From assembly GCA_029856365.1 (NCBI GenBank), contig JAHQWW010000034.1:1-29487 (forward strand): 29,487 nt of DNA. The letters are read 5' to 3'. Numbering within the stretch: the first letter of the stretch is position 1; each line of letters starts with the position of its first letter. The translations under genes and the position numbers were made by a program. Of this stretch, positions 2,917 through 29,487 are shown piece after piece. A model generated the notes under the pieces. It had not been told where the DNA came from. It saw nothing but the letters and a program-made list of their open reading frames with translations, and did no database searches. Origin of the DNA: Candidatus Hodarchaeota archaeon (GTDB taxonomy: Archaea; Asgardarchaeota; Heimdallarchaeia; Hodarchaeales; Hodarchaeaceae).

Positions 2917-4614
2917 ATGAACTACAGATATCCCCCTCCTGATCTCTTGATTATCAATCGCGATAAAGTAATATTCAGCTCTGGAGTAGGAAAGCTAACA
3001 AAATATCCAGATATTTCTGGTACCCTTGCTAATGTGTTGACACTTTTTTCCCATAAAATTTTGAAGGGGGAACAAATTAACTTCATTAAATTTGACAACC
3101 ATAAAATGGTATTTCTAACATCTCAAAAACCTGAATTCCCATCACTTATAGCAGTAGTACTTGTACCTAGCGTGGTGAGTGCAAAACGAGCTATTCCTGT
3201 TATGAGAATTGTATTGAACTTAATGGAAGAATATTTGGAGGAAAAAATCCATGATGCCAAATTTCAACAGCTAGATTGTTTTAATAGAGTCATTAATTTT
3301 CCTTCTCAATCATTATTTCTTCTTCCAAAAACTGCTGAAGGAATTAGATCCGCTCTTGTTCTTTTAGCTAGTTTCGCTCATGATCTCCAAGTTAGTCTTG
3401 AAAAAGTAACTTCAAGAATGTTCTTTGTGGTCGAGGAAGACTACTTAGCAATTGAAAAAATAATTGATAAAGTTGAGAATCTTGGTGTCTTATCATTATT
3501 TCCATTACCTACCCATTTAAAGAACCCTGAGAATAAATTTTGTGAAATCGGGTACAAATCACCCATTCGACAGTTTTTCTCCGCAATACCTGAAGAAAAA
3601 CCGTTTCAAACTCTTGCGAGAATTTTCGGATCTCATTCTAATGCATTTAAAATGAAATCTTTCGTTGATAATGATGAAGCATTGGAAGTTATGCAATCAA
3701 TTGCCTCATTAGATAAAATATATGATGTTTTCGTACGGAATGAGATTCTTCTTAATACTATAATGAATCCAGGGCAAGACGTTGTAGCAACACTCTCTTC
3801 ACCTCTTTTAAAGAAAATGATGGAGATAGCTGAAAAAAAAGATCTTGTTCCTAGAAAAGTTACCGCAGAGCAATATAAATTGGATCAGATTGATGGGATC
3901 GTTAAGTTAAAAAATGTGGAGAGAGTATACAGGCTAGGAAATCAACAAATTTATGCTTTAAAGGATGTATCTTTAGATCTAGCTAGTGGACAACTTGTAG
4001 TAGTCTTAGGCCCATCTGGTTCAGGTAAAACCACTCTCTTGAACGTTATTGGAGGGATTGATAAGTGTAAGGGTACAATTAAAGTAGGTAATATCGAAGT
4101 TACAAAATTAAGTAAAAGGAAACTCACAAGATACCGACGCGAGAACTGTGGGTTTATCTTTCAATTCTTCAACCTAATACCTGTACTAAATGCTCTGGAG
4201 AATGTGGAGTATGCAGTAGAGTTATCGGAAAAAAGAAAAATGACGCAAGAAGAAGTAAGAGCGAGAACTGAAAAATATATCAGAAAGATTGGATTATGGG
4301 ATAAACGATTTTTGTTTCCATCTCAACTTTCTGGAGGAGAGCAACAACGTGTTGCTGCTGCACGTGCTTTTGCTAAAGAACCCGAAATACTGCTATGTGA
4401 TGAACCAACAGGGGAACTTTCAGTAAAAGAAGGTAAGAAAGTATTAGCTGTTATTCAAGAGATGATTAAAGACAGACCAAACCTCCTAGTTATACTTGTC
4501 ACACATAATCAAAAGATTTCTTTGATTGGAAATCGAGTAATCAGATTGCGATCTGGTAAAATAGATTCTATTACTTCTCAGACACCAACTCCTGCTAAGG
4601 AGATTACATGGTAA
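2917..4614 (+). CDS. LolD/MacB-type ABC ATPase fused to an N-terminal longin-like (plus possible DENN-like) region
   Basis: The NBD starts at about aa 328 (3898): Walker [11 protein letters not shown]-loop [15 protein letters not shown], Walker B LLCDEPT, VTHN. Residues 1-125 show a longin beta-beta-alpha-beta-beta-beta-alpha pattern by eye. The ATPase call is firm; the N-terminal fold is inferred. Confidence 0.85.
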
Positions 4615-4641
4615 TGAAGGATTAAGAAAGAGGCAAATCCT

Positions 4642-7188
4642 ATGACCAAAATTACTAAAAACATATTTCGTGCATTGAAAGCTCATAAAGCTCGTTTTTT
4701 TACCATCAGTATGGTGATAGCCATAGGTATAACCTCATTTAATGGGATGGTGACAGCTTTTGTGGTTATGACGAGAACTTATAACAATGCATTTGAAGAT
4801 TACAATATGGCAAGTTTCACAATGCAGACAGCAAATCCTGGAGGCTCTGGGGAAGATGCATGGATTGATTATAATAATTTAACAAGATACATGGATGAGT
4901 TTATGAATCAAGGAGAAGAAGAATCTAGTGTATTGACTTATGAATTAAGGATCGTTTATGACACAATATTTGAAATCCGCGGAACTCGTCAAAATGGTCG
5001 AATAGTCGCATATAGTACTTTTGATAAAAAGGGAAATTATCGTGAACAGCCCAATGTAAATGGATTTAAAATGCTTACTGGAGACCCATTTTCCGAAACA
5101 AGTCAGTACAGAAATGTGTGTTTGGTTGAGACACATCTTGCTACATATTGGAAGCTCGAACCACATGAATTCATTGCAGTGGGAGATAACGATGTCCCTT
5201 TTGAAATTCTCGGAACACTTGGTACTCCAGAGTATTTGATCAATATGGGTTCATATGCTGATATTATGCCTAGTCCTCGCCGTTTTGGTGTGGTTTACCT
5301 CCCCCTAAAAAGAGCTCAAGTATTGTTAAACGTCCCAGGTCGAGTAAATGAAATTTCTGTCCTTCTAAAAACTGATCTCTATACTCGCCAGCGAGAAACA
5401 ATAGCAGAGGACTTAAAGACCTTTCTTGAGGAAACTCACAACTTGAAATTAAGTGATCCCATTGATAGAGATAAACAGCCTGCATATTATTTACTCAAAT
5501 TGGATATTGAAGAAGCTCGTGAATTCGGATATGTTTTACCTATCATAATTCTTGTAATGGCAATGGGTGGATTATACGTACTTTTAGGGAGAATGGTTGT
5601 TGCTGAACGAAAAGATATTGGCGTCGCACAAGCTCTTGGTTATAGCCGCAGAACTATAATCCTTCAATATCTGGGAATAGCGATGATTGTCGCACTTGTA
5701 GGAACGATTATAGGATCCATATTAGGACTATTATTCCTAGATTGGTTTGGCCCATTGTACACACAAATGCTTACAATTCCTTTTGATCCCAAGGTTACTC
5801 TAGAGTGGCCAATACTCATAGTAGGATTCTTTTTAGGGATCTCTACAGGTTTTATTGGAGGATATTTACCTGTTCGTGGAGCAATCCAACCTCTTCCTGC
5901 AGAAAGCTTGAGGTTTGATCCATCATTGCATATTACGACTGGACGAGTACCTCTTGCTGAAAGAATTTTAAATAAATTCCGAATACACTTGAAAGTCACT
6001 GGTTACAAAATTCCAGTTAGGAATTTCTTTCGTAGTAAACGCAGAACCTTTTCTTCTGTTTTTGCAGTCATTGTATCGGTTTCGTTAATCTCAATGGTAT
6101 TTGGGATGATGGAATCGATGTCTTATGCGTTGGAATTTCAATATGAAGTAGCCGAGGATTGGGATTTACGAATTGATTATTCCGAGATACCTTCGAATGC
6201 TTCCGAAATCGCCAAAGCTATCAACAAAATTGATGGTGTGTCAAATGTAACATACCATCTTCTTTCAGGAGCGACTGTCACATCAAATCAATCGAAGATA
6301 AGTAAACAAATTCAATTAATTGGAATGAATGATTTTAATGGCTATATTGCTCATAAGTTTAATTTTGATGCTGGTACATTTGATCCAAATGGTGTTGTAT
6401 TGAGTCGTCCCATTGCTGAAAAACTAAAAGTATGGGAAAAGGACTATATATTACTTGAGATTCCCCGTCTTACAAAATTAGTAAGTTCAGCTCCATTAAG
6501 AGCACATTTTGAGATGGTGAATGTTTCATTTCCCATAACTGGAATTGTAGACGAATTCAATGGTTTAGTTGCTTATATAGGATTGAATAAGTTAATACAG
6601 GCAAGCAATTTTGATGATTTTGGTCAACCAGCTAATATTGTATTGATCAAAGTAGAAAATCCCACACCAACTCAATTAGATTCAATACGTAAAGAGATTT
6701 ATGCAAAATATAGTTATAATATAAGAAATATTTTTACTAAGGAAGAACAGAGTAGCGATTTTGCTGACCTTCTTGATCTAATTTATTTTATTATCTACAT
6801 TGTCGCAATATTTGCTGTAATTCTATCGTGTTCAATCGTATATAATACCATTTATATCAACTTACAAGAACAACAAAGGGAGATAGCTACCCTATTAACT
6901 ATTGGTACGCCCAATAGGCGACTTATCAGAAATGTTACAGTAGAAAATTTGATAATAACTATAATTGGGACGGTCTTAGGTTTAATCCTAGGATGGATCA
7001 TGTTATGGTTTTTCATGAAAGTCATTTTGGATTTGGAATTTTTTAGAATAAAATTATTCATAAGTAATGAAACAATTCTACTCTCATTTGGATTGACTTT
7101 GATTGGTGTTTTAGTGGCTCAATTCTTCCCTTTAAGAAGGGCTTTGAATCTGAATCTTGCAGAAGCAACTAAAGAACGTGTGATTTAG
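4642..7188 (+). CDS. Type VII ABC (MacB/LolCE/FtsX-like) permease, internally duplicated
   Basis: Two repeats of TM + large extracytoplasmic domain + 3 TM, with coupling motifs ERKDIGVAQALGYS and EQQREIATLLTIGTP. Confidence 0.92.
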   Translation: MTKITKNIFRALKAHKARFFTISMVIAIGITSFNGMVTAFVVMTRTYNNAFEDYNMASFTMQTANPGGSGEDAWIDYNNLTRYMDEFMNQGEEESSVLTYELRIVYDTIFEIRGTRQNGRIVAYSTFDKKGNYREQPNVNGFKMLTGDPFSETSQYRNVCLVETHLATYWKLEPHEFIAVGDNDVPFEILGTLGTPEYLINMGSYADIMPSPRRFGVVYLPLKRAQVLLNVPGRVNEISVLLKTDLYTRQRETIAEDLKTFLEETHNLKLSDPIDRDKQPAYYLLKLDIEEAREFGYVLPIIILVMAMGGLYVLLGRMVVAERKDIGVAQALGYSRRTIILQYLGIAMIVALVGTIIGSILGLLFLDWFGPLYTQMLTIPFDPKVTLEWPILIVGFFLGISTGFIGGYLPVRGAIQPLPAESLRFDPSLHITTGRVPLAERILNKFRIHLKVTGYKIPVRNFFRSKRRTFSSVFAVIVSVSLISMVFGMMESMSYALEFQYEVAEDWDLRIDYSEIPSNASEIAKAINKIDGVSNVTYHLLSGATVTSNQSKISKQIQLIGMNDFNGYIAHKFNFDAGTFDPNGVVLSRPIAEKLKVWEKDYILLEIPRLTKLVSSAPLRAHFEMVNVSFPITGIVDEFNGLVAYIGLNKLIQASNFDDFGQPANIVLIKVENPTPTQLDSIRKEIYAKYSYNIRNIFTKEEQSSDFADLLDLIYFIIYIVAIFAVILSCSIVYNTIYINLQEQQREIATLLTIGTPNRRLIRNVTVENLIITIIGTVLGLILGWIMLWFFMKVILDLEFFRIKLFISNETILLSFGLTLIGVLVAQFFPLRRALNLNLAEATKERVI

Positions 7189-7201
7189 GAGGAATAAGTA
7201 A

Positions 7202-7948
7202 ATGGCGTACATCACACTTGAGAATGTTGGAAAAAACTATATCTTAGGTGAAACCATGACTCAAGCTTTAGATGGAATTAACCTCAACATAGAATTAGGA
7301 GAACTTGTCGTCATCTTTGGGCCCTCTGGAGCTGGGAAAACAACACTTTTAAACATGATTGGTGGTTTGGATATTCCCACATCTGGCAAAGTGACTGTTG
7401 GTGAAATTTCCGTTTCGACTCTGTCCGCTAAATGGTTAACTATCTACAGGAGAAAGAAAGTTGGGGTAGTGTTCCAATTTTTTAACCTTATTTCTCGATT
7501 ATCAGCTTTGGAAAATGTTGAATATGCTCTAGAATTAGTAGGTGTAAAAAAAGAATCTAATGGTGGGGTCACTTTCGATTCCAAAGTGATTCGTAATACA
7601 GCTAAAGAATACCTTGATAAAGTAGGTCTTCACGATCGGATACATCATTTTCCAGCCCAATTAAGTGGGGGAGAACAACAACGAGTCGCCATTGCAAGAG
7701 CGCTTGCAAAAGAACCTGAAATCCTATTGGCCGATGAACCAACAGGGAATTTGGATTTTAAGATTGGAAGACAAGTTTTAGAAATAATGGAAGCCATGAC
7801 AGGGAAGAAATTAAATCGTACAGTGGTTATTGTGACCCATAATGAAGCCATTTGCCCATTAGGGGATAGAGTGATTCGATTGTCTGATGGTCGAATAGTA
7901 GAGGATTATACCCAAAAATTTACGCCTGCTGAAGAGTTATATTGGTAA
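7202..7948 (+). CDS. LolD/MacB-type ABC transporter ATP-binding protein
   Basis: [35 protein letters not shown]; GGAGG RBS; C-terminal tail PAEELYW. Confidence 0.95.
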   Translation: MAYITLENVGKNYILGETMTQALDGINLNIELGELVVIFGPSGAGKTTLLNMIGGLDIPTSGKVTVGEISVSTLSAKWLTIYRRKKVGVVFQFFNLISRLSALENVEYALELVGVKKESNGGVTFDSKVIRNTAKEYLDKVGLHDRIHHFPAQLSGGEQQRVAIARALAKEPEILLADEPTGNLDFKIGRQVLEIMEAMTGKKLNRTVVIVTHNEAICPLGDRVIRLSDGRIVEDYTQKFTPAEELYW

Positions 7949-12126: not shown

Positions 12127-13557
12127 ATGGAAATAATCCTTATGAGGCTATATAACTCTTTATCACGAAAGAAGGAAGAATTTATCACTATTGAGGAGAA
12201 AAAAGTTCGTTTTTATTCGTGTGGCCAGACTTTATACGAAGATGCTCATATTGGAAACGCTAGAACATATTCCTACTGGGATGTTTTAGTTAGGTATCTT
12301 CGTTGGCGAGGTTATGATGTTTTTTGGGTGCAGAACTTTACTGACGTTGGCCATTTAACTGATGATGCTGATAGTGGTGAAGATAAAATCATACGTACAG
12401 CAAAAGCCAAAGAAATCCAACCAATGGTGTTAGTAGAAGCACAAATTCGGAGATTCTATGAAGATATGGATGCTCTTAATATCCAACGAGCAGATATTTA
12501 TCCCCGTGCGACTGCTGAAATCCCAGATATGATCGAATTCGTAAAGGATTTACTAGAAAAAGGGTTTGCTTACGAAGTTAATGGCTCAATCTATTTCGAT
12601 GTTATGAAATTTCCGTCCTACGGAGAACTCAGCCCTTCTAATTATTCTGAGGAGTCAGCAGGCGCTCGTATTGCTGTTAACCCCGAAAAGCGAGATCCCA
12701 GGGATTTTGCACTGTGGATTCGAGCTCCTCCAGAACATCTAATGAAATGGCCATCCCCATGGGGTCTTGGTTATCCTGGTTGGCATCTTGAATGTAGTGT
12801 AATGTCTCAAAAGTATCTTGGTGCTACCTTGGATATTCATGGAGGTGGAATAGACCATCTTTATCTTCATCATCCGAATGAAATCGCTCAATCTGAAGCA
12901 CGGACGGGCAAAACATTTGTGAACTATTGGTTACATGCAGCATTCTTAACAGTAGATGGGGAACGAATGGGAAAATCGAAGGGAAATTTTATTCTTGTGC
13001 GTGAACTCCTTCAGGAATACGATCCTATGCTAATACGACTATTTCTGGTTAATTCTCACTATCGTAAAAGTGTAGATTTCAACCGTGATGCACTTGTCCA
13101 AACTCAAGTTCTTCTTGATCGAATTAGAACAACAGTTGCCGCCATTAATCAAGCGCCAGGGGAAACTAAGTCGGACTTGAGTTCATCAATAACTCAAGTC
13201 GAAAAAGACTTTGTTACGGCAATGGACGATGATTTGAACACTGTTGGCGCTATTCAAGTAATAATGCAGTTTATTAGAAAGGTTAATACTTCTTTAGACA
13301 ATGAAAAATCCCTCTTGGAAAAAGCAAAAAATACAATCATCACTTTAGTAGGAATACTCGGAATCACTCTGAAAGATCAGGGACAACAAGGAATGGTTTC
13401 TCTTTCCGCTATAGTGGATCTGATTGTACAATTGAGAGATAAATTAAGAGAAGCCAAACAATATGAACTCTCTGATCATATAAGATCGGAGCTGTTAAAG
13501 AAGGGGATTCAACTGGAAGATAAACCAGAAGGTACAATTTGGAAGATGAAAAATTGA
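12127..13557 (+). CDS. cysS: Cysteine--tRNA ligase
   Basis: CGQTLY..AHIGNAR, NFTDVGH, WPSPWG.GYPGWHLECS, DIHGGG.D...HHPNE.AQSE, RMGKSKGN, HYR, MDDDLNT. The start may be ATG 12142. Confidence 0.97.
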   Translation: MEIILMRLYNSLSRKKEEFITIEEKKVRFYSCGQTLYEDAHIGNARTYSYWDVLVRYLRWRGYDVFWVQNFTDVGHLTDDADSGEDKIIRTAKAKEIQPMVLVEAQIRRFYEDMDALNIQRADIYPRATAEIPDMIEFVKDLLEKGFAYEVNGSIYFDVMKFPSYGELSPSNYSEESAGARIAVNPEKRDPRDFALWIRAPPEHLMKWPSPWGLGYPGWHLECSVMSQKYLGATLDIHGGGIDHLYLHHPNEIAQSEARTGKTFVNYWLHAAFLTVDGERMGKSKGNFILVRELLQEYDPMLIRLFLVNSHYRKSVDFNRDALVQTQVLLDRIRTTVAAINQAPGETKSDLSSSITQVEKDFVTAMDDDLNTVGAIQVIMQFIRKVNTSLDNEKSLLEKAKNTIITLVGILGITLKDQGQQGMVSLSAIVDLIVQLRDKLREAKQYELSDHIRSELLKKGIQLEDKPEGTIWKMKN

Positions 13558-22160: not shown

Positions 22161-22865
22161 TCAAAGGCTTGTATCAGATATAATGCGTCCATCATCCATG
22201 CGAATAAGTCGCATGCCTGGTTTAAGCATCTCCTCGTCATGAGTAACACATATAATTGTTTTACCATATTCTTGGTTAAGTTTGGTGATTAGTGCTATTA
22301 TTTCAAGACCAGTGACTGAATCCATATCGCCAGTAGGCTCGTCTGCTAATATGATTATGGGATCATTAGCTAAAGCTCGAGCAATTCCCACACGCTGTTT
22401 TTCACCCCCAGATAGTTCATGTGGATGGTGATTTAATCGATGATCTAAATTTACTAGATTAAGTAATTCTTTGGCTCTTATCTCTCGCTGTGATCGTTTC
22501 ACATTTGCAATTAACATTGGAAGTTCAACATTTTCCTGGGCGGATAGTATTGGATGAAGATTAAAAAATTGAAAAATAAATCCAAGTTTATATCGCCTTA
22601 TTTCACACAGCTGACGATCACTTAGTGTCTGTAGATCATCTCCTAATACCTTGACATTCCCTGCTGATGGTGCTTCTAGTCCTGCAATGGTATTTAATAA
22701 GGTACTCTTACCACTCCCACTTGGCCCCATGACCATTATAAACTCATTTGGACGAACAGTAATATTTATATCACTAAGAGCATCGATTGTGTGCGCTCCA
22801 AGCTTGTAACGCTGACTCACACCTTCCAGTTCAATGATATTCTCACTAGAGGACGATTTACTCAT
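22161..22865 (-). CDS. LolD/MacB-type ABC transporter ATP-binding protein
   Basis: GPSGSGKST, LSGGEKQRV, DEPTGDMD, VTHD; GAGGTGA RBS favours ATG 22865. Confidence 0.95.
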   Translation of the reverse strand: MSKSSSSENIIELEGVSQRYKLGAHTIDALSDINITVRPNEFIMVMGPSGSGKSTLLNTIAGLEAPSAGNVKVLGDDLQTLSDRQLCEIRRYKLGFIFQFFNLHPILSAQENVELPMLIANVKRSQREIRAKELLNLVNLDHRLNHHPHELSGGEKQRVGIARALANDPIIILADEPTGDMDSVTGLEIIALITKLNQEYGKTIICVTHDEEMLKPGMRLIRMDDGRIISDTSL

Positions 22866-22878
22866 TTTAATGATCACC

Positions 22879-23730
22879 TCAAGCTGGAATGATTGTTATA
22901 TGGCCATCAATTAGTTCTAACTTCGCGTGTTTTTTCAAACCCGCTTTATTTCGCAGCTCTTCTGGAATACGAATGTTTCCATGATCATCTATGTAGAAAA
23001 TTTCTTCTCGTTCTGAAACTGATTTCTCTGGATCAATTGCGCGATGCATACCAATTATTTGCCCATCAAGAATATTCACAGCTTGTTTAGTCATGTTAGC
23101 AAATCGATGGTCATGAGTTACTACAACAAATGTTGTTCCTAGTTCTCTGTTTATTTCTTGAAAATAATCAATGATTTTAAAAGTTGTTACACTATCTAGT
23201 TCACCTGTGGGTTCATCTGCAAGAATAATTGCTGGATCATTGGCCAATGCAACAGCGATTCCCACTCGTTGGGCTTCTCCCCCAGATAACTCGTGAGGTT
23301 TATGATTAACTCTTTTTTCTAGACCAACTCTCTTTAACAATTCAAGTGTTCTTTGTTTTTGTTTCTGAAGTCCCCACCGACTTGTCATTTTCATTGGAAA
23401 GATGACATTCTCAAAAGCAGTGATGTTCCATATGAGATTTCTTTGAGGGAACTGGTAAAGAAAACCAACTTGATGACGACGATATTCAACCAATTCTTTT
23501 TTCTTCATTTTGTTAATGACTTGACCATCGACAATTATGTTTCCTGAGGATGGTTTATCTATTCCACCTATTAAATTGATGAGAGTGCTTTTACCTGCTC
23601 CGCTTGGTCCAATAATTGCGCTCATTTCACCTTTATCTGCCGCTAATTCTATGCCTCGTAAGGCTGGTACTTGGATTTTAATCACTGGATCTGTATAAAG
23701 CTTAAATACATCTTGACATTCGAGAAACAT
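22879..23730 (-). CDS. ABC ATPase with C-terminal AbrB/SpoVT-like extension
   Basis: GPSGAGKST, LSGGEAQRV, DEPTGELD, VTHD, then YIDDHGNIRIPEELRNKAGLKKHAKLELIDGHITIIP (D..G.I.IP...R...G swapped-hairpin pattern). Confidence 0.9.
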   Translation of the reverse strand: MFLECQDVFKLYTDPVIKIQVPALRGIELAADKGEMSAIIGPSGAGKSTLINLIGGIDKPSSGNIIVDGQVINKMKKKELVEYRRHQVGFLYQFPQRNLIWNITAFENVIFPMKMTSRWGLQKQKQRTLELLKRVGLEKRVNHKPHELSGGEAQRVGIAVALANDPAIILADEPTGELDSVTTFKIIDYFQEINRELGTTFVVVTHDHRFANMTKQAVNILDGQIIGMHRAIDPEKSVSEREEIFYIDDHGNIRIPEELRNKAGLKKHAKLELIDGHITIIPA

Positions 23731-26586
23731 TCATTCCACCTTTAAAACTCGACTTATATCTTTCTTTGTTGCTTTATATGCTATTATAAGAGTTCCTATT
23801 GTAGCAACAAAAATAACAAGAGCTAAGAAACTAAAAATGAAGTCGAAAGGATAAGCTACCACAATTGGAGGTACCGTTCTGCCCATTTGAGTTACCAAGA
23901 GGAAAATAGTCGTATTTACTAACCCTGTTCCAAAACCGATAACTAATCCAAAGAAAAGTATTGATAATCCTTCAATACTGAACAAAATTGCTGTTTGAGT
24001 ACGAGTCATACCTAAAGCTCGTTCCACTCCTATTTCTTTCCCTCGTTCAAGATATGTGAAAAGAGAGAACATTACCGTCCCTAAAACTGAAATTATAATA
24101 CAAACAGAAAGCGCGGTATTAAGGATTGCCAATATAAAACGTCGTTCGACACTTTTAATATAATTTTGATAATCAAGCATCGCAGAATAAGTATGAGGAG
24201 TTTGGATTGATAGATATTTAACAGTATTATAGACAACTTCAGGATTGCATGTAGGTTCCAACTCACAAAGAATACTTGAATCGTAAATTGCTACATATTC
24301 ATACTTATTTAAGTCATAAAACATACCTAGGCTTCCTATTACAAATATTGAATCAACAGGAGCCCATTCATATTCCTGATACTGAGGCCATAGATTAAAC
24401 GTGCCAACAATTGAATAATTACGATAATCTGAATCTCTTGCATAAAATAAGCTTTTATTGTAAAAATGAAACCCAAATGAATCATTTATCTCTAAATTAG
24501 GATATTTATCCATATTTTCTTTGTAGAGAATGATTGATTGATTATCTGCTATCTTTTCCATAAGAGTGGTAAGAGGTGAACTAATACCAAATCGTTCTTC
24601 ATCGAAAAAGGCAATTTCTGCATAAGATCGGGGATCTACAAAACAAAAAATGTAATATTGTGTTCCTGTTTCACTAGGGGTATTAGCGAAGAATGTTTGA
24701 GTAACGCGAGAGATACCTGATATGTTCTGTACCGTATGAAGCAAAGATACATCACTATATTCACCAACAATGTTAACTTTAAGATCAGCCCCAGTGTAGT
24801 AATAGTACTCCATTTTTTTAGTTTCATCAACAGAAATTGTTAAAGAGCCAGAAATAATAGTGTATGAGATTGCTAAAGTGATCAAAATGACCGCTTGGCT
24901 TGCTGCCTCTTTATGACGTACTACGTTTCTTAATGCAAAAGCTCCAAGTTTTCCTCTTTTTTTCCATAGAAATTGAGCTAGATTTTTGATAAAAAGAGGG
25001 AAAAGTCTCGCAATCAATAGAATTGATCCAAAAAATAGCAAAAAAGGCGTGGGAACACCCACTAATAAGAAAATAACAGGCAATAAGGGAATAAACTCTC
25101 CACTTGACACAATAATATTCCCTATTTCATTAATTATGAAATAGCCAGCTAAACCCAAAATAGTAGCTATTACATCAAGATAATAGCGCTTCCAAAATGG
25201 AGAAATTCTTTCTACTGGAATGATTGATTCCTGAATAGTCATTCGGGTATATTGAATCATTGCAGATACATTAAGGATAATTGTTATAATTATGACAAAG
25301 ATAAACAAAGTTTGAATGAGATTGGCTGAAATTTTTACTGGTAGTGTCTTACCAGAAAAGTCAAGAAAGTTTACAGACCTTATGATAGTACCAGTTACGA
25401 AATATCCAAGAGTAAATCCACAGATGAGGGTTATACCAATTGCAACTATTGATTCTCCTATAAGAAAGATAAATACTTGTTGCCACGATCCTCCTCGCGT
25501 TTTAAGGATACCAATAGTTTCTTTCTTTTGACGTTTAATCAAACTATATGAATAACCGACAAAATAGACCGCGATTGCTATGACAGGGATATCTATCAAA
25601 AATAAAAGGATTTGTAGAATTCGTACATTTTCTATTACGATATCAAAATTATCTAGGAGGTTGTATACATCAAAAATATCTACAGAGAGGGTTTTATTCT
25701 CTAAATTAACAAAAAAGTCATTCATTTTAGTAAACAATGCATTAAATTTTGCTTTTTCTTTCGACAGATCATTAATATTGAATCGCGATTGATCAAGGAA
25801 GATCTTACCATGTACAGTTGATACAAATATATAGGGATGATCACCCATTATTTGTGTCATCAAATCTAAAGCTTTTTCTAAAGAGGTTAACATGAAATAA
25901 TTTTCAGAAGAATAATCTAAGAAAAGGTGTTCTAGAAGTAGTTTTTCTGCTTTACTATACTCCAATATTCCTACTATAGATACATTAACGGCAGTAAATC
26001 TAGCCCAGACTGCACTTGTTGGATGGATCCCTACATTAATGTGTTGTCCAATTTCTAATTGAGAATTATTCTCTTTTATAACTACAATAATCTCTGTATA
26101 GTTTTCAGGTAAACGCCCTCCAGGGTTCAAGTAGGATTCTATACTTGATAATACATCGGGTTCCATCGTTCTTAAATTAGCAGCCTGAAATGGATAGTTT
26201 GATGGGAAGTTCTCATAATAACCTAACTTGAACTCCCCAAACCAACGCTGTTTGACGAAATAATCTTGATACTCAGCTGCCTCGAAAGAATTAGTTACTA
26301 ATTGGGAAAAATTCTTATGATTATTGATCCAATCAAGCTCTCCACTGTCAACAGTCGGATAGAGCTCAATTTGAATCTCCCCACTGAAATCATTCCTTTC
26401 TTCGGAATAAAGTAGTTCTTCGATTAATTCAGTATTATATGATTCTATCAGCATTGAGCTTGTTGCTATGATTGTTGTAGCTATAACTAATCCGATTATT
26501 GTTGCTAGTAGAGCTTTACGGTTGTTTGTGATAAAACGAAAGGAAATATAACTAAGATCATATATTTTCTTTAATGAATCTGGCAT
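23731..26586 (-). CDS. Type VII ABC (FtsX/MacB-like) permease, internally duplicated
   Basis: RQKKETIGILKTRGGS and ERGKEIGVERALGMT coupling motifs; two large extracytoplasmic domains. Confidence 0.92.
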   Translation of the reverse strand: MPDSLKKIYDLSYISFRFITNNRKALLATIIGLVIATTIIATSSMLIESYNTELIEELLYSEERNDFSGEIQIELYPTVDSGELDWINNHKNFSQLVTNSFEAAEYQDYFVKQRWFGEFKLGYYENFPSNYPFQAANLRTMEPDVLSSIESYLNPGGRLPENYTEIIVVIKENNSQLEIGQHINVGIHPTSAVWARFTAVNVSIVGILEYSKAEKLLLEHLFLDYSSENYFMLTSLEKALDLMTQIMGDHPYIFVSTVHGKIFLDQSRFNINDLSKEKAKFNALFTKMNDFFVNLENKTLSVDIFDVYNLLDNFDIVIENVRILQILLFLIDIPVIAIAVYFVGYSYSLIKRQKKETIGILKTRGGSWQQVFIFLIGESIVAIGITLICGFTLGYFVTGTIIRSVNFLDFSGKTLPVKISANLIQTLFIFVIIITIILNVSAMIQYTRMTIQESIIPVERISPFWKRYYLDVIATILGLAGYFIINEIGNIIVSSGEFIPLLPVIFLLVGVPTPFLLFFGSILLIARLFPLFIKNLAQFLWKKRGKLGAFALRNVVRHKEAASQAVILITLAISYTIISGSLTISVDETKKMEYYYYTGADLKVNIVGEYSDVSLLHTVQNISGISRVTQTFFANTPSETGTQYYIFCFVDPRSYAEIAFFDEERFGISSPLTTLMEKIADNQSIILYKENMDKYPNLEINDSFGFHFYNKSLFYARDSDYRNYSIVGTFNLWPQYQEYEWAPVDSIFVIGSLGMFYDLNKYEYVAIYDSSILCELEPTCNPEVVYNTVKYLSIQTPHTYSAMLDYQNYIKSVERRFILAILNTALSVCIIISVLGTVMFSLFTYLERGKEIGVERALGMTRTQTAILFSIEGLSILFFGLVIGFGTGLVNTTIFLLVTQMGRTVPPIVVAYPFDFIFSFLALVIFVATIGTLIIAYKATKKDISRVLKVE

Positions 26587-27033: not shown

Positions 27034-29112
27034 TTAGCGTCGAAAACCCTCAACTTTGTCCCAATCATGCCAACCAATTGGTGCAAATTTTTGACTTCTG
27101 GGTATCTCAGTATTTATTGTATAGGCAATAGCTTTTCTCAAAGTCCGACGAGTTATAATTTCAGTACTTATTACTGGTATTATTATCGTTAAAATTGTCC
27201 ATAAAAGGATAAAATTTACACTGATGTTTGTTTGAATCTGAATTGAAAAGCTTATGTACCACACCAATAATTCTGATCCAATTAAGCCATTTAAAATTCC
27301 AATAATTACTCCAGTTGTCACAAGGAGTGTTGATTCTACTAAAAGCGTTTGAAAAACCTCACTATGTGACAGCCCTATCGCTCGTAGGATTCCTATTTCT
27401 CTTTCCATTTTCAAATTTGTCATTAAAATGCTTAAGAATTGAGTTAAGGCTGCAATAAGAAAGGTATAAATGATAAGAACCTGAAAAAAAACCGTAATCA
27501 TCATCAAAGTACTTTCAATGACCTGAGCATAGAAATCAACTGGAATTATTTCATTTAAAGAAGGATATCTCCCCGCAAGCTGATTTGCGACAACATTAGG
27601 ATGGTCACTATCAGATGATAACTTCATAATGAACCAATTTGCAGTATTGTTCGACCAATAATTTTGAAATAAAACATTTGAGACATATAAATAATAACCA
27701 TGTTGAAGGAAGGGATTACCAGCTGTAATCCCTGTTAATATAACCTCAATACTTGAATTTGATGACACTTGGATTGTTAAATTATTACCAATTCTTCCAC
27801 CAATCAGATTTAGAAGTATATCACTAATTATTGCTCCTTTTCTTGTCGCATTTAATAAAGCTGGGATGTCTGTATCAAGTGGGCTTATCATTGTTTCATT
27901 AAAGAAATACTCATAGGAGGTGGGGTTTATTCCTAAAACATAACCATATACGTTTTCAATCTTCGTTCTTTGTTGTTGCATAAATTCAGCTCTTTCTATA
28001 TCAGAATTATTCATTACAAGTTCATCGACAAACGATAGTGAAACCTGAGAATCATCTGTAGTCTCTGCAATAATATCAATACGTCCATAACGTTCTTCAT
28101 AATACTCAGGAACAGATTCAATAATACCAGCAGATGTGATACCTAGTATAAGAATAAATGAAAGAGCTAGTGCCGTTACCATGGTTGTAATGATTGATTT
28201 TTGCGATTCTCTTGCAATATTTCTAGTAGCAATGATTCTGGGCACACGTCCATGCCAGATCATTAATTTTTCTCCTATTTTAGGGACAAAATGCAATAAG
28301 CTGGTTTCGAGAAGCAAGATTCCCAGAAAAACTAATCCAATAGCAAAAAAAGGCCAGGAAATTATTTCAAATGATAGGAATTCGCTTGAACTTATTGAAT
28401 TGGCCGTTACAAAACCAATAATAACTACTATTGCGCCAATTATCATAAAAAATAACCAGGATCTTGATTTAGACTTTTTCATCCTAGTTTTCAAGTGAAT
28501 ATTCTGGATAACAGGGAGAGAAATCGCCTTGAAAATAGGATATAACCCAGCCAACAATGTGATCAGAATTCCACTTATATAAGCGATAAAAAGTGAAGTA
28601 GGTTTGATTATAATAGTATCTAAACGTACAGTAGTAAAGTAAAAATTCAAAAAAAACATTGGAAAGAATGAAAAAACTATTCCTATAAGAATACCAATAA
28701 GACCAGCAACCCCACCATAAATTAACACTTCCAAACCAAGAAATACAAAAATTTGAAGATTGGAGGAGCCTATAGCTCTTAACACACCAAACTCTTTTGA
28801 TCGTTCTCTAATATTCATTGAAAGTACGTTGGTAATAAATAAGAATTCAACAACAAATGACACTAAGATAATGAGACTCATTGCAGTTTGATAAGATCGA
28901 ATAGCTAATATATCAGTTTCGCTAAGCGAATTCTCTCGATAAACATCATAATCTAATCCAACGAAATCCTGTATTTTTTCAGCAACACTATTAATATTGA
29001 TAAAATTTACAACTTTCACAACTAAATGACAGTTAACAAAATATTTAGAAGTGAACAGACTAATTAAATAGTCAAAATCGAAAAGAATGAAGAATAAGCG
29101 TGATAAATGCAT
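27034..29112 (-). CDS. Type VII ABC permease, N-terminally truncated (likely partial gene or pseudogene)
   Basis: ERSKEFGVLRAIGSS and EREIGILRAIGLS motifs. The ORF begins at what looks like the end of the first extracytoplasmic domain and lacks TM1 and most of that domain. No obvious RBS at 29112. Confidence 0.8.
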   Translation of the reverse strand: MHLSRLFFILFDFDYLISLFTSKYFVNCHLVVKVVNFININSVAEKIQDFVGLDYDVYRENSLSETDILAIRSYQTAMSLIILVSFVVEFLFITNVLSMNIRERSKEFGVLRAIGSSNLQIFVFLGLEVLIYGGVAGLIGILIGIVFSFFPMFFLNFYFTTVRLDTIIIKPTSLFIAYISGILITLLAGLYPIFKAISLPVIQNIHLKTRMKKSKSRSWLFFMIIGAIVVIIGFVTANSISSSEFLSFEIISWPFFAIGLVFLGILLLETSLLHFVPKIGEKLMIWHGRVPRIIATRNIARESQKSIITTMVTALALSFILILGITSAGIIESVPEYYEERYGRIDIIAETTDDSQVSLSFVDELVMNNSDIERAEFMQQQRTKIENVYGYVLGINPTSYEYFFNETMISPLDTDIPALLNATRKGAIISDILLNLIGGRIGNNLTIQVSSNSSIEVILTGITAGNPFLQHGYYLYVSNVLFQNYWSNNTANWFIMKLSSDSDHPNVVANQLAGRYPSLNEIIPVDFYAQVIESTLMMITVFFQVLIIYTFLIAALTQFLSILMTNLKMEREIGILRAIGLSHSEVFQTLLVESTLLVTTGVIIGILNGLIGSELLVWYISFSIQIQTNISVNFILLWTILTIIIPVISTEIITRRTLRKAIAYTINTEIPRSQKFAPIGWHDWDKVEGFRR

Positions 29113-29155
29113 CTGGCTTTATATATACGAATTCGTCTTCGAGTGATTCGCTCAT
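29072..29155 (-). pseudogene. 5' fragment (27 codons) of a probable MPN/JAB-domain gene
   Basis: GGAGGA RBS then MSESLEDEFVYIKPDAFITLILHSFRF*, matching the V.I.P.A...i..H first strand and helix of MPN domains. Starts 3 nt after the upstream MPN-like gene's stop. Confidence 0.6.
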
Positions 29156-29158
29156 TTT

Positions 29159-29487
29159 TCAATCCTCCGTATCTTTAATCAGAATTGATCTGCTCTTGAA
29201 AGAAGTTAAGATTTTCATTAAAATATCGATAACATCGTCCAATTCGAAGAAATCTGAATATTCCCATCTAACTGTTGTGAAATCGCTCATCATATTAATT
29301 TCTTTCAAATCACCTTCTAGGCGAAATATTGTAAAGCCATCATCAAATGCTAAATTGTCACAATTAAAAATTATCACAATGCTTGGTGGAAATCCTAAAC
29401 TCTGAAAATAGAGGTGATTCTTCTTGTCCAAAATTGTAGTTTTTATGCCAAGTTTTTTAGAGTTTCTAGCCCACCCTATTATATATT
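29159..29487 (-). CDS. MPN/JAB (Mov34)-like protein with degenerate JAMM motif, C-terminal part (5' end outside the window)
   Basis: The frame is open to the window edge: YIIGWARNSKKLGIKTTILDKKNHLYFQSLGFPPSIVIIFN...GFTIFRL. This aligns without gaps over the GWYHSHPGFGCWLSGVD motif of Rpn11, followed by strands matching AVAVVVDP and AFRL. Confidence 0.7.
   Translation of the reverse strand, partial: YIIGWARNSKKLGIKTTILDKKNHLYFQSLGFPPSIVIIFNCDNLAFDDGFTIFRLEGDLKEINMMSDFTTVRWEYSDFFELDDVIDILMKILTSFKSRSILIKDTED

Follow-up and report, generated by a model that had tools for sequence, protein, structure and literature searches.

Pieces of two catalytically dead MPN-domain genes at the tip of a Hodarchaeal contig point to a Lokiarchaeial gene cluster and a probable chimeric assembly

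Introduction

Does the right-hand end of a contig from a Hodarchaeal genome encode an archaeal forerunner of the Rpn8/Rpn11 pair, in which an inactive MPN-domain protein accompanies an active isopeptidase? The DNA in question, referred to here as the window, is 29,487 nucleotides (nt) of Candidatus Hodarchaeota archaeon (assembly GCA_029856365.1, contig JAHQWW010000034.1) and makes up the entire contig C22 of an assembly (G000) that comprises 204 contigs and is 84% complete. At its end two open reading frames (ORFs), which we call genes A and B, lie in tandem on the minus strand. A first-pass annotation took them for a possible native, operonic Rpn8/Rpn11-like pair that would foreshadow the heterodimers of the eukaryotic lid, COP9 signalosome (CSN) and eIF3. 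Our analysis instead indicates, with a probability of roughly 0.8, that both are pieces of dead genes from an A-B-C-D cluster of Lokiarchaeia, carried on a chimeric contig tip.

Couples of an MPN enzyme and an MPN pseudo-enzyme characterise several eukaryotic complexes, namely the proteasome lid, the COP9 signalosome, eIF3 and BRISC. In a 2018 study, Rpn11/Rpn8-type organisation was stated not to be known in archaea (PMC6043591), and our literature search found no account of dead MPN paralogues in Asgard archaea.

Results

Both genes at the contig tip belong to a catalytically dead MPN family

Gene A is represented by its 3' part only (29159..29485, minus strand), an ORF of 108 codons plus stop that is open at the contig end and whose translation opens YIIGWARNSKKLGIKTTILD. 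Full relatives have about 202 amino acids (aa), and the 5' ~94 codons of the gene are missing off the contig end. The degenerate JAMM motif GWARNSKKLGIKTTILD (29426..29476, minus strand) reads as the first-pass annotation had it: when it is aligned to GWAHTHPGLGLFLSGTD and the JAMM positions are read column by column, both zinc-binding histidines are lost (to R and S), Ser is replaced by Thr and Asp is kept. The upstream JAMM Glu is likewise absent in full-length relatives of gene A, so the description of the first gene as a JAMM-dead pseudoenzyme holds. The reference motif GWAHTHPGLGLFLSGTD comes from a JAMM-intact MPN protein of the same genome (G000:C154:23532-24422; Pfam JAB, 1.3e-14), whose GWAHTH...LSGTD aligns with GWARNS...TTILD of gene A. 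BLASTP aligned the two proteins pairwise along the length of the fragment at E=7e-6, and the genome-wide tblastn value was E=0.04.

A phmmer search of 1.8 billion representative proteins returned P0001 (202 aa, 90% identity, E=2e-57) as the closest relative of gene A, together with other relatives of ~200 aa. The window's 108-aa half-domain had no Pfam match by itself; full-length relatives scored above the 22.5-bit gathering score of Pfam JAB (PF01398), with 26.4 bits for P0001, 28.7 for gene B of the metagenome contig L008 and 40.9 for P0006. A profile of the A/B family matched BRCC36, Caldiarchaeum Rpn11, Rpn8, CSN5, Rpn11 and eIF3h in the PDB at 2.5e-8 to 1e-4, BRCC36 being the top match (2.5e-8). 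The AlphaFold (AF2) model of P0001 has an MPN fold (predicted local distance difference test score, pLDDT, 85; predicted TM-score 0.85). Foldseek matched this model to CSN6, BRCC36, Rpn8, Mov34 and Rpn11 in the PDB at E ~1e-8 and probability 1.0, and VIA-align gave Z scores of 14.6-17.3 across 142-175 residues. Because the alignment and the phmmer, Pfam, profile and fold matches of the relatives agree, gene A is confirmed as a piece of an MPN-domain gene that has lost both zinc histidines. The Foldseek comparison that the first-pass annotation had proposed thus bore out the fold.

Gene B begins just behind gene A. The stop codon of gene A (29161-29159) is followed by the spacer AAA (29156..29158, minus strand) and by an ATG at 29155, so the 3-nt spacing reported earlier is correct. 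The first 27 codons of gene B (29075..29155, minus strand) were placed by DNA alignment with L008 and L015, and their DNA matches that at the beginning of an MPN gene on L008 with 100% identity. That contig carries P0001 and is spaced alike, gene B starting 3 nt past the P0001 stop and running for at least 145 codons; the tandem recurs in relatives. The assignment of both ORFs to the MPN domain is thus sustained by Pfam JAB in relatives, by the fold of the P0001 model and by the DNA match to L008. Gene B of relatives has ~200 aa and is itself JAMM-dead (GWYRSS...), in 8 of 8 orthologues checked and also in genomes G135 and G136. Since gene B is dead as well, the adjacent pair is not a couple of an inactive and an active subunit; intact pairs recovered from relatives are indeed adjacent, as had been expected, but both of their genes are dead.

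The ORF of gene B closes at an in-frame TGA (29074-29072), where L008 has TGG; the TGA is made by a junction. Beyond window position 29073 the two sequences diverge abruptly (L008, TTT TGG CCG...; window, TTT TGA CTA...). Read-through of the TGA into the rest of gene B was considered and rejected, given the TGG of L008, the complete divergence beyond it and a TAG four codons on. Because MPN homology stops and permease homology begins at this point, the 27-codon ORF is the start of gene B running into the interior of a permease gene. The truncation noted in the first-pass annotation therefore lies at the junction and not at the end of the contig.

The pair is not native to the Hodarchaeal genome

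The gene on the other side of the junction encodes an FtsX-type ATP-binding cassette (ABC) permease (27034..29095, minus strand), recognised by Pfam FtsX, by alignment with a paralogue and by the metagenome contig L061, and is ~190 N-terminal codons short. Its ORF is open over 27034..29112, in a different frame from gene B, and contains two FtsX domains (Pfam, 5.6e-23). It aligns with an 898-aa paralogue on contig C111 beginning at paralogue residue 190, and a same-genus orthologue in G007 aligns from window position 29099 on. L061, a Joint Genome Institute (JGI) metagenome contig of 7,895 nt, matches window 29095-21866 with 99.79% identity over 7,230 nt and runs on upstream into the permease's 5' part, which is intact and starts MSFTLPWRNV.... 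A 36-mer on the permease side of the junction was found in two JGI metagenome contigs, and the junction 32-mer was absent from every other metagenome contig searched. The junction itself is a zone without strand at 29073..29099, gene B homology ending at 29073 and permease homology starting at 29095-29099. At the join the parents of permease and gene B share ATTCTTCATTCTT[A/T]TCGATTTTG, that is, 23 nt with one mismatch. On these matches the permease stretch is native DNA of the window's organism, and the truncated permease is very probably an assembly artefact and not a pseudogene.

The tip beyond the junction has other affinities. It aligns with L008 ungapped over 415 nt at 93.5% DNA identity, with 100% identity from ~29247 to 29073 (~175 nt) and ~89% before ~29247, and with L015, from the metagenome-assembled genome WORB4, at 88.7%. 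A switch point within the tip (29233..29247, no strand) was located from this change in L008 identity and from protein comparison: gene A residues 1-84 are identical to the variants P0011/P0012, and residues 85-108 together with the start of gene B are identical to the variant P0001/L008. At the protein level the tip is therefore a mosaic. The WORB4 genome (G150, the same as G041; family f20) shares only the phylum with the window's organism and belongs to a different class. The cysteinyl-tRNA synthetase of the window (12127-13557) is 73-85% identical in same-genus genomes and 40% identical in WORB4.

A search of 40 relatives of the window's organism, comprising 21 same-genus and 19 other same-class genomes, failed to recover gene A; the two apparent matches among them were spurious, being frames with stops. 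Genomes of the window's genus have just two generic MPN genes each. Full-length A, B, C and D, the members of the source cluster described below, were searched by tblastn against all 204 contigs of G000, and neither a remainder of A/B nor an orthologue of C/D was recovered. The suggestion to extend the contig to the right led nowhere, as the window is the whole of C22 and no contig continues it. The 415-nt tip is thus not native DNA, and its sequence identity traces it to another Asgard class, namely to a Lokiarchaeon. The pair cannot be regarded as resident in the window genome because L061 has the permease intact, the DNA identity is Lokiarchaeial, the tip is a mosaic and congeners lack gene A; the last ~400 nt of C22 should therefore be left out of this organism's gene annotation.

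A, B, C and D form a cluster in a minority of Lokiarchaeia

Judged by sequence, the true hosts of the fragment are certain Lokiarchaeia (Promethearchaeia), a minority, in which the gene order is A(MPN-)-B(MPN-)-C(MPN+)-D(MPN+), where the minus sign marks the dead and the plus sign the active genes. The products have ~200, ~200, ~470 and ~465 aa, respectively. An A-B tandem with a gap of 0-30 nt was seen in L008, L009, L010-L012, L013, L014, L015, L016, L023, L025 and L026; A and B are neighbours in every locus having both, and C and D follow in most. The cluster is complete in L009 (A, B, C and D of 201, 199, 468 and 466 aa), L014 (202, 201, 477 and 464 aa), L023 (199, 206, 475 and 465 aa), L025, L026 and G135:C41. 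In L015 the contig end truncates gene A, behind which come B, C and D of 203, 471 and 463 aa. In L025 and L026 two small genes separate B from C, one of 103-109 aa and one encoding a tetratricopeptide repeat (TPR) protein of 258-261 aa. In L013/L016, G146 and G168 the A-B and C-D parts are on separate contigs.

The two halves of the cluster differ in their catalytic residues. Read column by column, C has the full E-HxH-S-D JAMM site in all loci examined, and D has E-HxH-S-D in 9 of 9 loci checked that have A/B. In each B the Glu and, at the least, the first His are missing; A invariably lacks the Glu and, except in L025_A/P0016, one or both His. This gene (L025:10001-10639) and P0015, from one lineage, read GWFHSHGG...TPTD, with HxH, Thr and Asp kept and Glu lost. 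L025_A looks like an intermediate stage of decay and may still bind zinc.

C and D carry helical tails of ~270 residues after the MPN core. A motif of the 'KPLIxExxE' type forms the C-terminal ends of A and B and stands in C and D between the MPN core and the tails; because this common motif closes A/B and precedes the tails of C/D, A and B appear to be degenerate copies, without a tail, of the type of module found in C/D. In a maximum-likelihood tree that took in Lokiarchaeial MPN paralogues only, A, B, C and D were each monophyletic, (A,B) had a support of 98/93 and (C,D) of 97/95, and A and B sat on long branches.

Strong short A/B pairs were found in 6 of the 399 Asgard genomes sampled (G150, G152, G146, G168, G135 and G136). 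MPN genes as such are widespread in family f20, where all 135 of 135 genomes had matches, usually 4-7 MPN genes each, and where long C/D tandems occur frequently. G151, which is 100% complete and comes from the WORB4 genus, has C/D without A/B. Given this genome and the count of 6/399, A/B is, as far as gene content tells, a patchy accessory nested within C/D-bearing genomes.

Among genomes without A/B, D was altered at the JAMM site in 8 of 17 (e.g., EHRSD, KLHTD and QHHSD). The role of a dead partner may be filled in two alternative ways, by short A/B or by a degenerate D. Five of the eight genomes with a degenerate D belong to one genus, so the cases are not phylogenetically independent and we make no statistical claim on D versus A/B. 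The A/B-less loci are L043-L054, for example G264:C7, G260:C31, G242:C112, G266:C54, G259:C34, G278:C167, G241:C51 and G247:C268. In families f15-f17, an MPN domain that matches the A/B profile at 1e-38 to 1e-40 stands first in open frames of 578-610 aa ( G131:C112:58856-59434, L034; G127:C21:618-1187, L035; G125:C61:11124-11696, L036; and G130:C7:125013-125579). These frames are a putative third, long form of the A/B MPN subfamily.

Neighbours of the cluster and of the native permease

The A/B cluster neighbourhoods examined showed no gene for ubiquitin or for an E1, E2 or E3 enzyme. The TPR protein of L025 and L026 is the sole repeat protein inside the cluster, and no PCI-type partner was found, this protein being the one neighbour that was folded. 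Its predicted model (pLDDT 94) consists of 12 helices without strands and has no winged helix; the best fold matches were the TPR proteins LGN, SNAP and KLC, with a faint match to RPN7 (E 0.033), and EMC2 was not among the top 50. An identity of this gene as PCI-like or EMC2-like was rejected, there being no winged helix and the best folds being generic TPR proteins.

In one set of lineages a protein of ~255 aa is encoded directly before gene A (L009:376-1161, L014:170-928, L010:3-602 and L024:100-765); in it a charged linker joins a conserved N-terminal domain to a double zinc ribbon at the C terminus. In several other lineages a large gene lies divergently from A-B and encodes a protein of 675-900 aa that is internally duplicated, contains zinc ribbons and has a coiled coil at its C terminus (minus strand; L026:7319-9829, L025:7174-9873, L016:1-2025, L013:1-930 and L027:1-2454). 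The large protein is related between L026 and L016 (E=9e-23) and has no Pfam family match. The ~255-aa zinc-ribbon protein was tried as a homologue of this divergent neighbour (~840 aa) and rejected, as the zinc ribbon alone matches. Three loci encode a ParA/MinD-like (CbiA) ATPase no more than a few kb from the cluster (L025:19250-20639, L026:17979-20648 and L023:4564-5367), and an SMC gene is also close by in L025 and L026.

The native part of the Hodarchaeal contig includes a MacB/FtsX-type ABC system at 22161-26586, with ATPases at 22161-23730 and a 951-aa permease at 23731-26586, and a second set of this type at 2917-7948. Two other contigs of the assembly end in copies of the FtsX permease. 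The end of C55 (G000:C55:24246-24626, L038) has a copy without its first ~220 codons and stop-rich sequence upstream, and C10 (G000:C10:32317-32451, L037) breaks off after the first 49 codons of a further copy; this permease family seems to be one at which assembly fails or mis-joins. The end of C10, with permease residues 5-49, was examined as the missing 5' part of the truncated gene and rejected: it lacks synteny with G007 and does not match L061, so it belongs to another permease paralogue.

Discussion

How the Lokiarchaeial piece came to lie beside a Hodarchaeal permease can be explained by the assembly or by biology. We hold an assembly chimera at the tip of a metagenome contig to be very likely, with some points weighing against it. 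The exact words shared by L061 and L008 are only 13 + 9 nt about one mismatch, and a join in a graph of k>=21 would need a variant without that mismatch. With G000 84% complete, the missing cluster genes are weak evidence alone, and the chimera call was made from assembled contigs. If the junction were biologically real, a Lokiarchaeial MPN fragment would have been transferred recently and inserted into the permease by microhomology recombination, leaving dead remnants. In favour of such an insertion, the exact shared words are short for a k-mer graph join, a microhomology of 9-23 nt (23 nt with one mismatch) also serves illegitimate recombination, and Asgard genomes co-occur in sediments, where transfer is possible. 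Stretches of this kind let an assembly graph, or more rarely illegitimate recombination, switch from one parent to the other. We nevertheless regard a real insertion as improbable, since the same population has an intact permease in an independent assembly (L061) and the junction word was not found elsewhere. The piece moreover sits in the last 415 nt of the contig and is a mosaic of two variants, the bin holds no further part of the cluster, and gene A is present in 0 of 21 congeners.

The view of the pair as a native forerunner of the eukaryotic heterodimers retains some appeal, for both genes are eukaryote-like MPN genes whose profile matches BRCC36, Rpn8, CSN5, Rpn11 and eIF3h, the true hosts do have active MPN+ genes in the same cluster, and by the 2018 statement quoted above this type of organisation was not known in archaea. 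It has almost nothing left to stand on once the adjacent gene B is dead in all orthologues checked and the pair is foreign to the window genome. Nor do the data support the proposed archaeal origin of the architecture: in the Lokiarchaeial tree A and B group together and with C/D of the same archaea, the distribution is patchy (6/399 genomes), no PCI-type partner was found, and the TPR gene of the cluster, present in two lineages, matches LGN, SNAP and KLC and not PCI subunits. A different suggestion is that A and B are scaffolds like EMC8/EMC9 (UPF0172), unlinked to isopeptidases, and that their adjacency to C/D is incidental. EMC8/9 bind the TPR protein EMC2 in eukaryotes, and a TPR gene does occur in the B-C interval of L025 and L026. 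The P0001 model also aligns in full length with EMC9 (Z 16.0) and with EMC8 (Z 15-16), and the A orthologues P0004 (26.1 bits) and P0010 (33.2 bits) pass the 24.4-bit cut-off of Pfam UPF0172 (PF03665). However, the JAMM-intact C passes it too (27.8 bits), so the match is generic to MPN domains, and P0001, the protein nearest to the window fragment, has no UPF0172 match. Rpn11, BRCC36 and CSN6 do equally well or better in the fold searches, EMC2 is outside the top 50 folds of the TPR protein, and in most loci the paralogues A/B and C/D stay together in a single cluster. We therefore give the EMC-like role very little credence, if slightly more than the native Rpn8/Rpn11-like pair. The account we prefer remains that of two dead genes from a Lokiarchaeial cluster on a chimeric tip.

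In their true host, A and B would be pseudo-isopeptidases and the partners of one another and/or of C and D. They would scaffold or regulate two active isopeptidases, much as Rpn8, CSN6 and Abraxas/KIAA0157 do. We put this pairing or scaffold role forward tentatively, by analogy, at somewhat less than even odds. With much the same reserve we hold the fuller proposal that in some Lokiarchaeia A, B, C and D might form a hetero-oligomeric isopeptidase complex with dedicated tail-less dead subunits. Such a complex could have evolved in parallel to the eukaryotic Rpn11/Rpn8, CSN5/CSN6 and BRCC36/Abraxas modules or, less likely, be ancestral to them. Two observations speak against a joint function, namely that A/B lie apart from C/D in some genomes (G146 and G168) and that G151 keeps C/D without A/B. 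Whatever the function, the cluster more probably represents a lineage-specific parallel to the eukaryotic pairs than their ancestor; a parallel is favoured over an ancestor of Rpn8, CSN6 and eIF3f because A and B are sisters beside C/D in the tree and occur in 6/399 genomes. What some Lokiarchaeia have, and what is apparently undescribed, is two conserved yet fast-evolving dead MPN paralogues just upstream of a widespread tandem of active, long-tailed JAMM genes. A tractable archaeal 2+2 system of this kind would show how enzyme/pseudo-enzyme pairs arise and what the dead partner adds.

Comparison with known systems

The cluster resembles Rpn8-Rpn11 and CSN6-CSN5 in the eukaryote-like MPN fold (predicted A model; Foldseek 1.0, Z 15-17), in the encoding of dead paralogues beside active JAMM paralogues and in the C-terminal helices after the MPN core. 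It differs in having four paralogues, two dead and short and two active and long-tailed, in place of one plus one. Its two dead genes adjoin each other and are sisters beside C/D in the Lokiarchaeial-only tree; the search for a PCI-domain partner found none, and the pair is foreign to the genome in which it was first noticed.

BRCC36-Abraxas and BRCC36-KIAA0157 offer another parallel, as BRCC36 tops the profile matches of A/B and a 2+2 stoichiometry is conceivable. In the BRISC and BRCA1-A core, a tailed active MPN+ subunit (helical or coiled-coil) is combined with an MPN- pseudo-deubiquitinase (PMC4579573). In the Lokiarchaeial cluster, by contrast, the dead subunits are without a tail and the active ones are tailed, and the A/B neighbourhoods examined have no ubiquitin-system genes.

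CsRpn11 of Caldiarchaeum subterraneum is the top structural match of the P0001 model (Z 17.3, root-mean-square deviation 2.1 over 142 residues). Like A and B, it is archaeal and of comparable size, with a eukaryote-like MPN domain followed by helices at the C terminus. It is, however, an active enzyme that stands alone and is encoded in a ubiquitin operon (PMC6043591), whereas A and B have lost their catalytic residues and do not lie beside ubiquitin, E1, E2 or E3 genes. Within Lokiarchaeia themselves, the long-tailed C/D tandem consists of MPN genes of ~450-530 aa, to which A and B add, in a minority of lineages, further short, tail-less and always-dead paralogues upstream.

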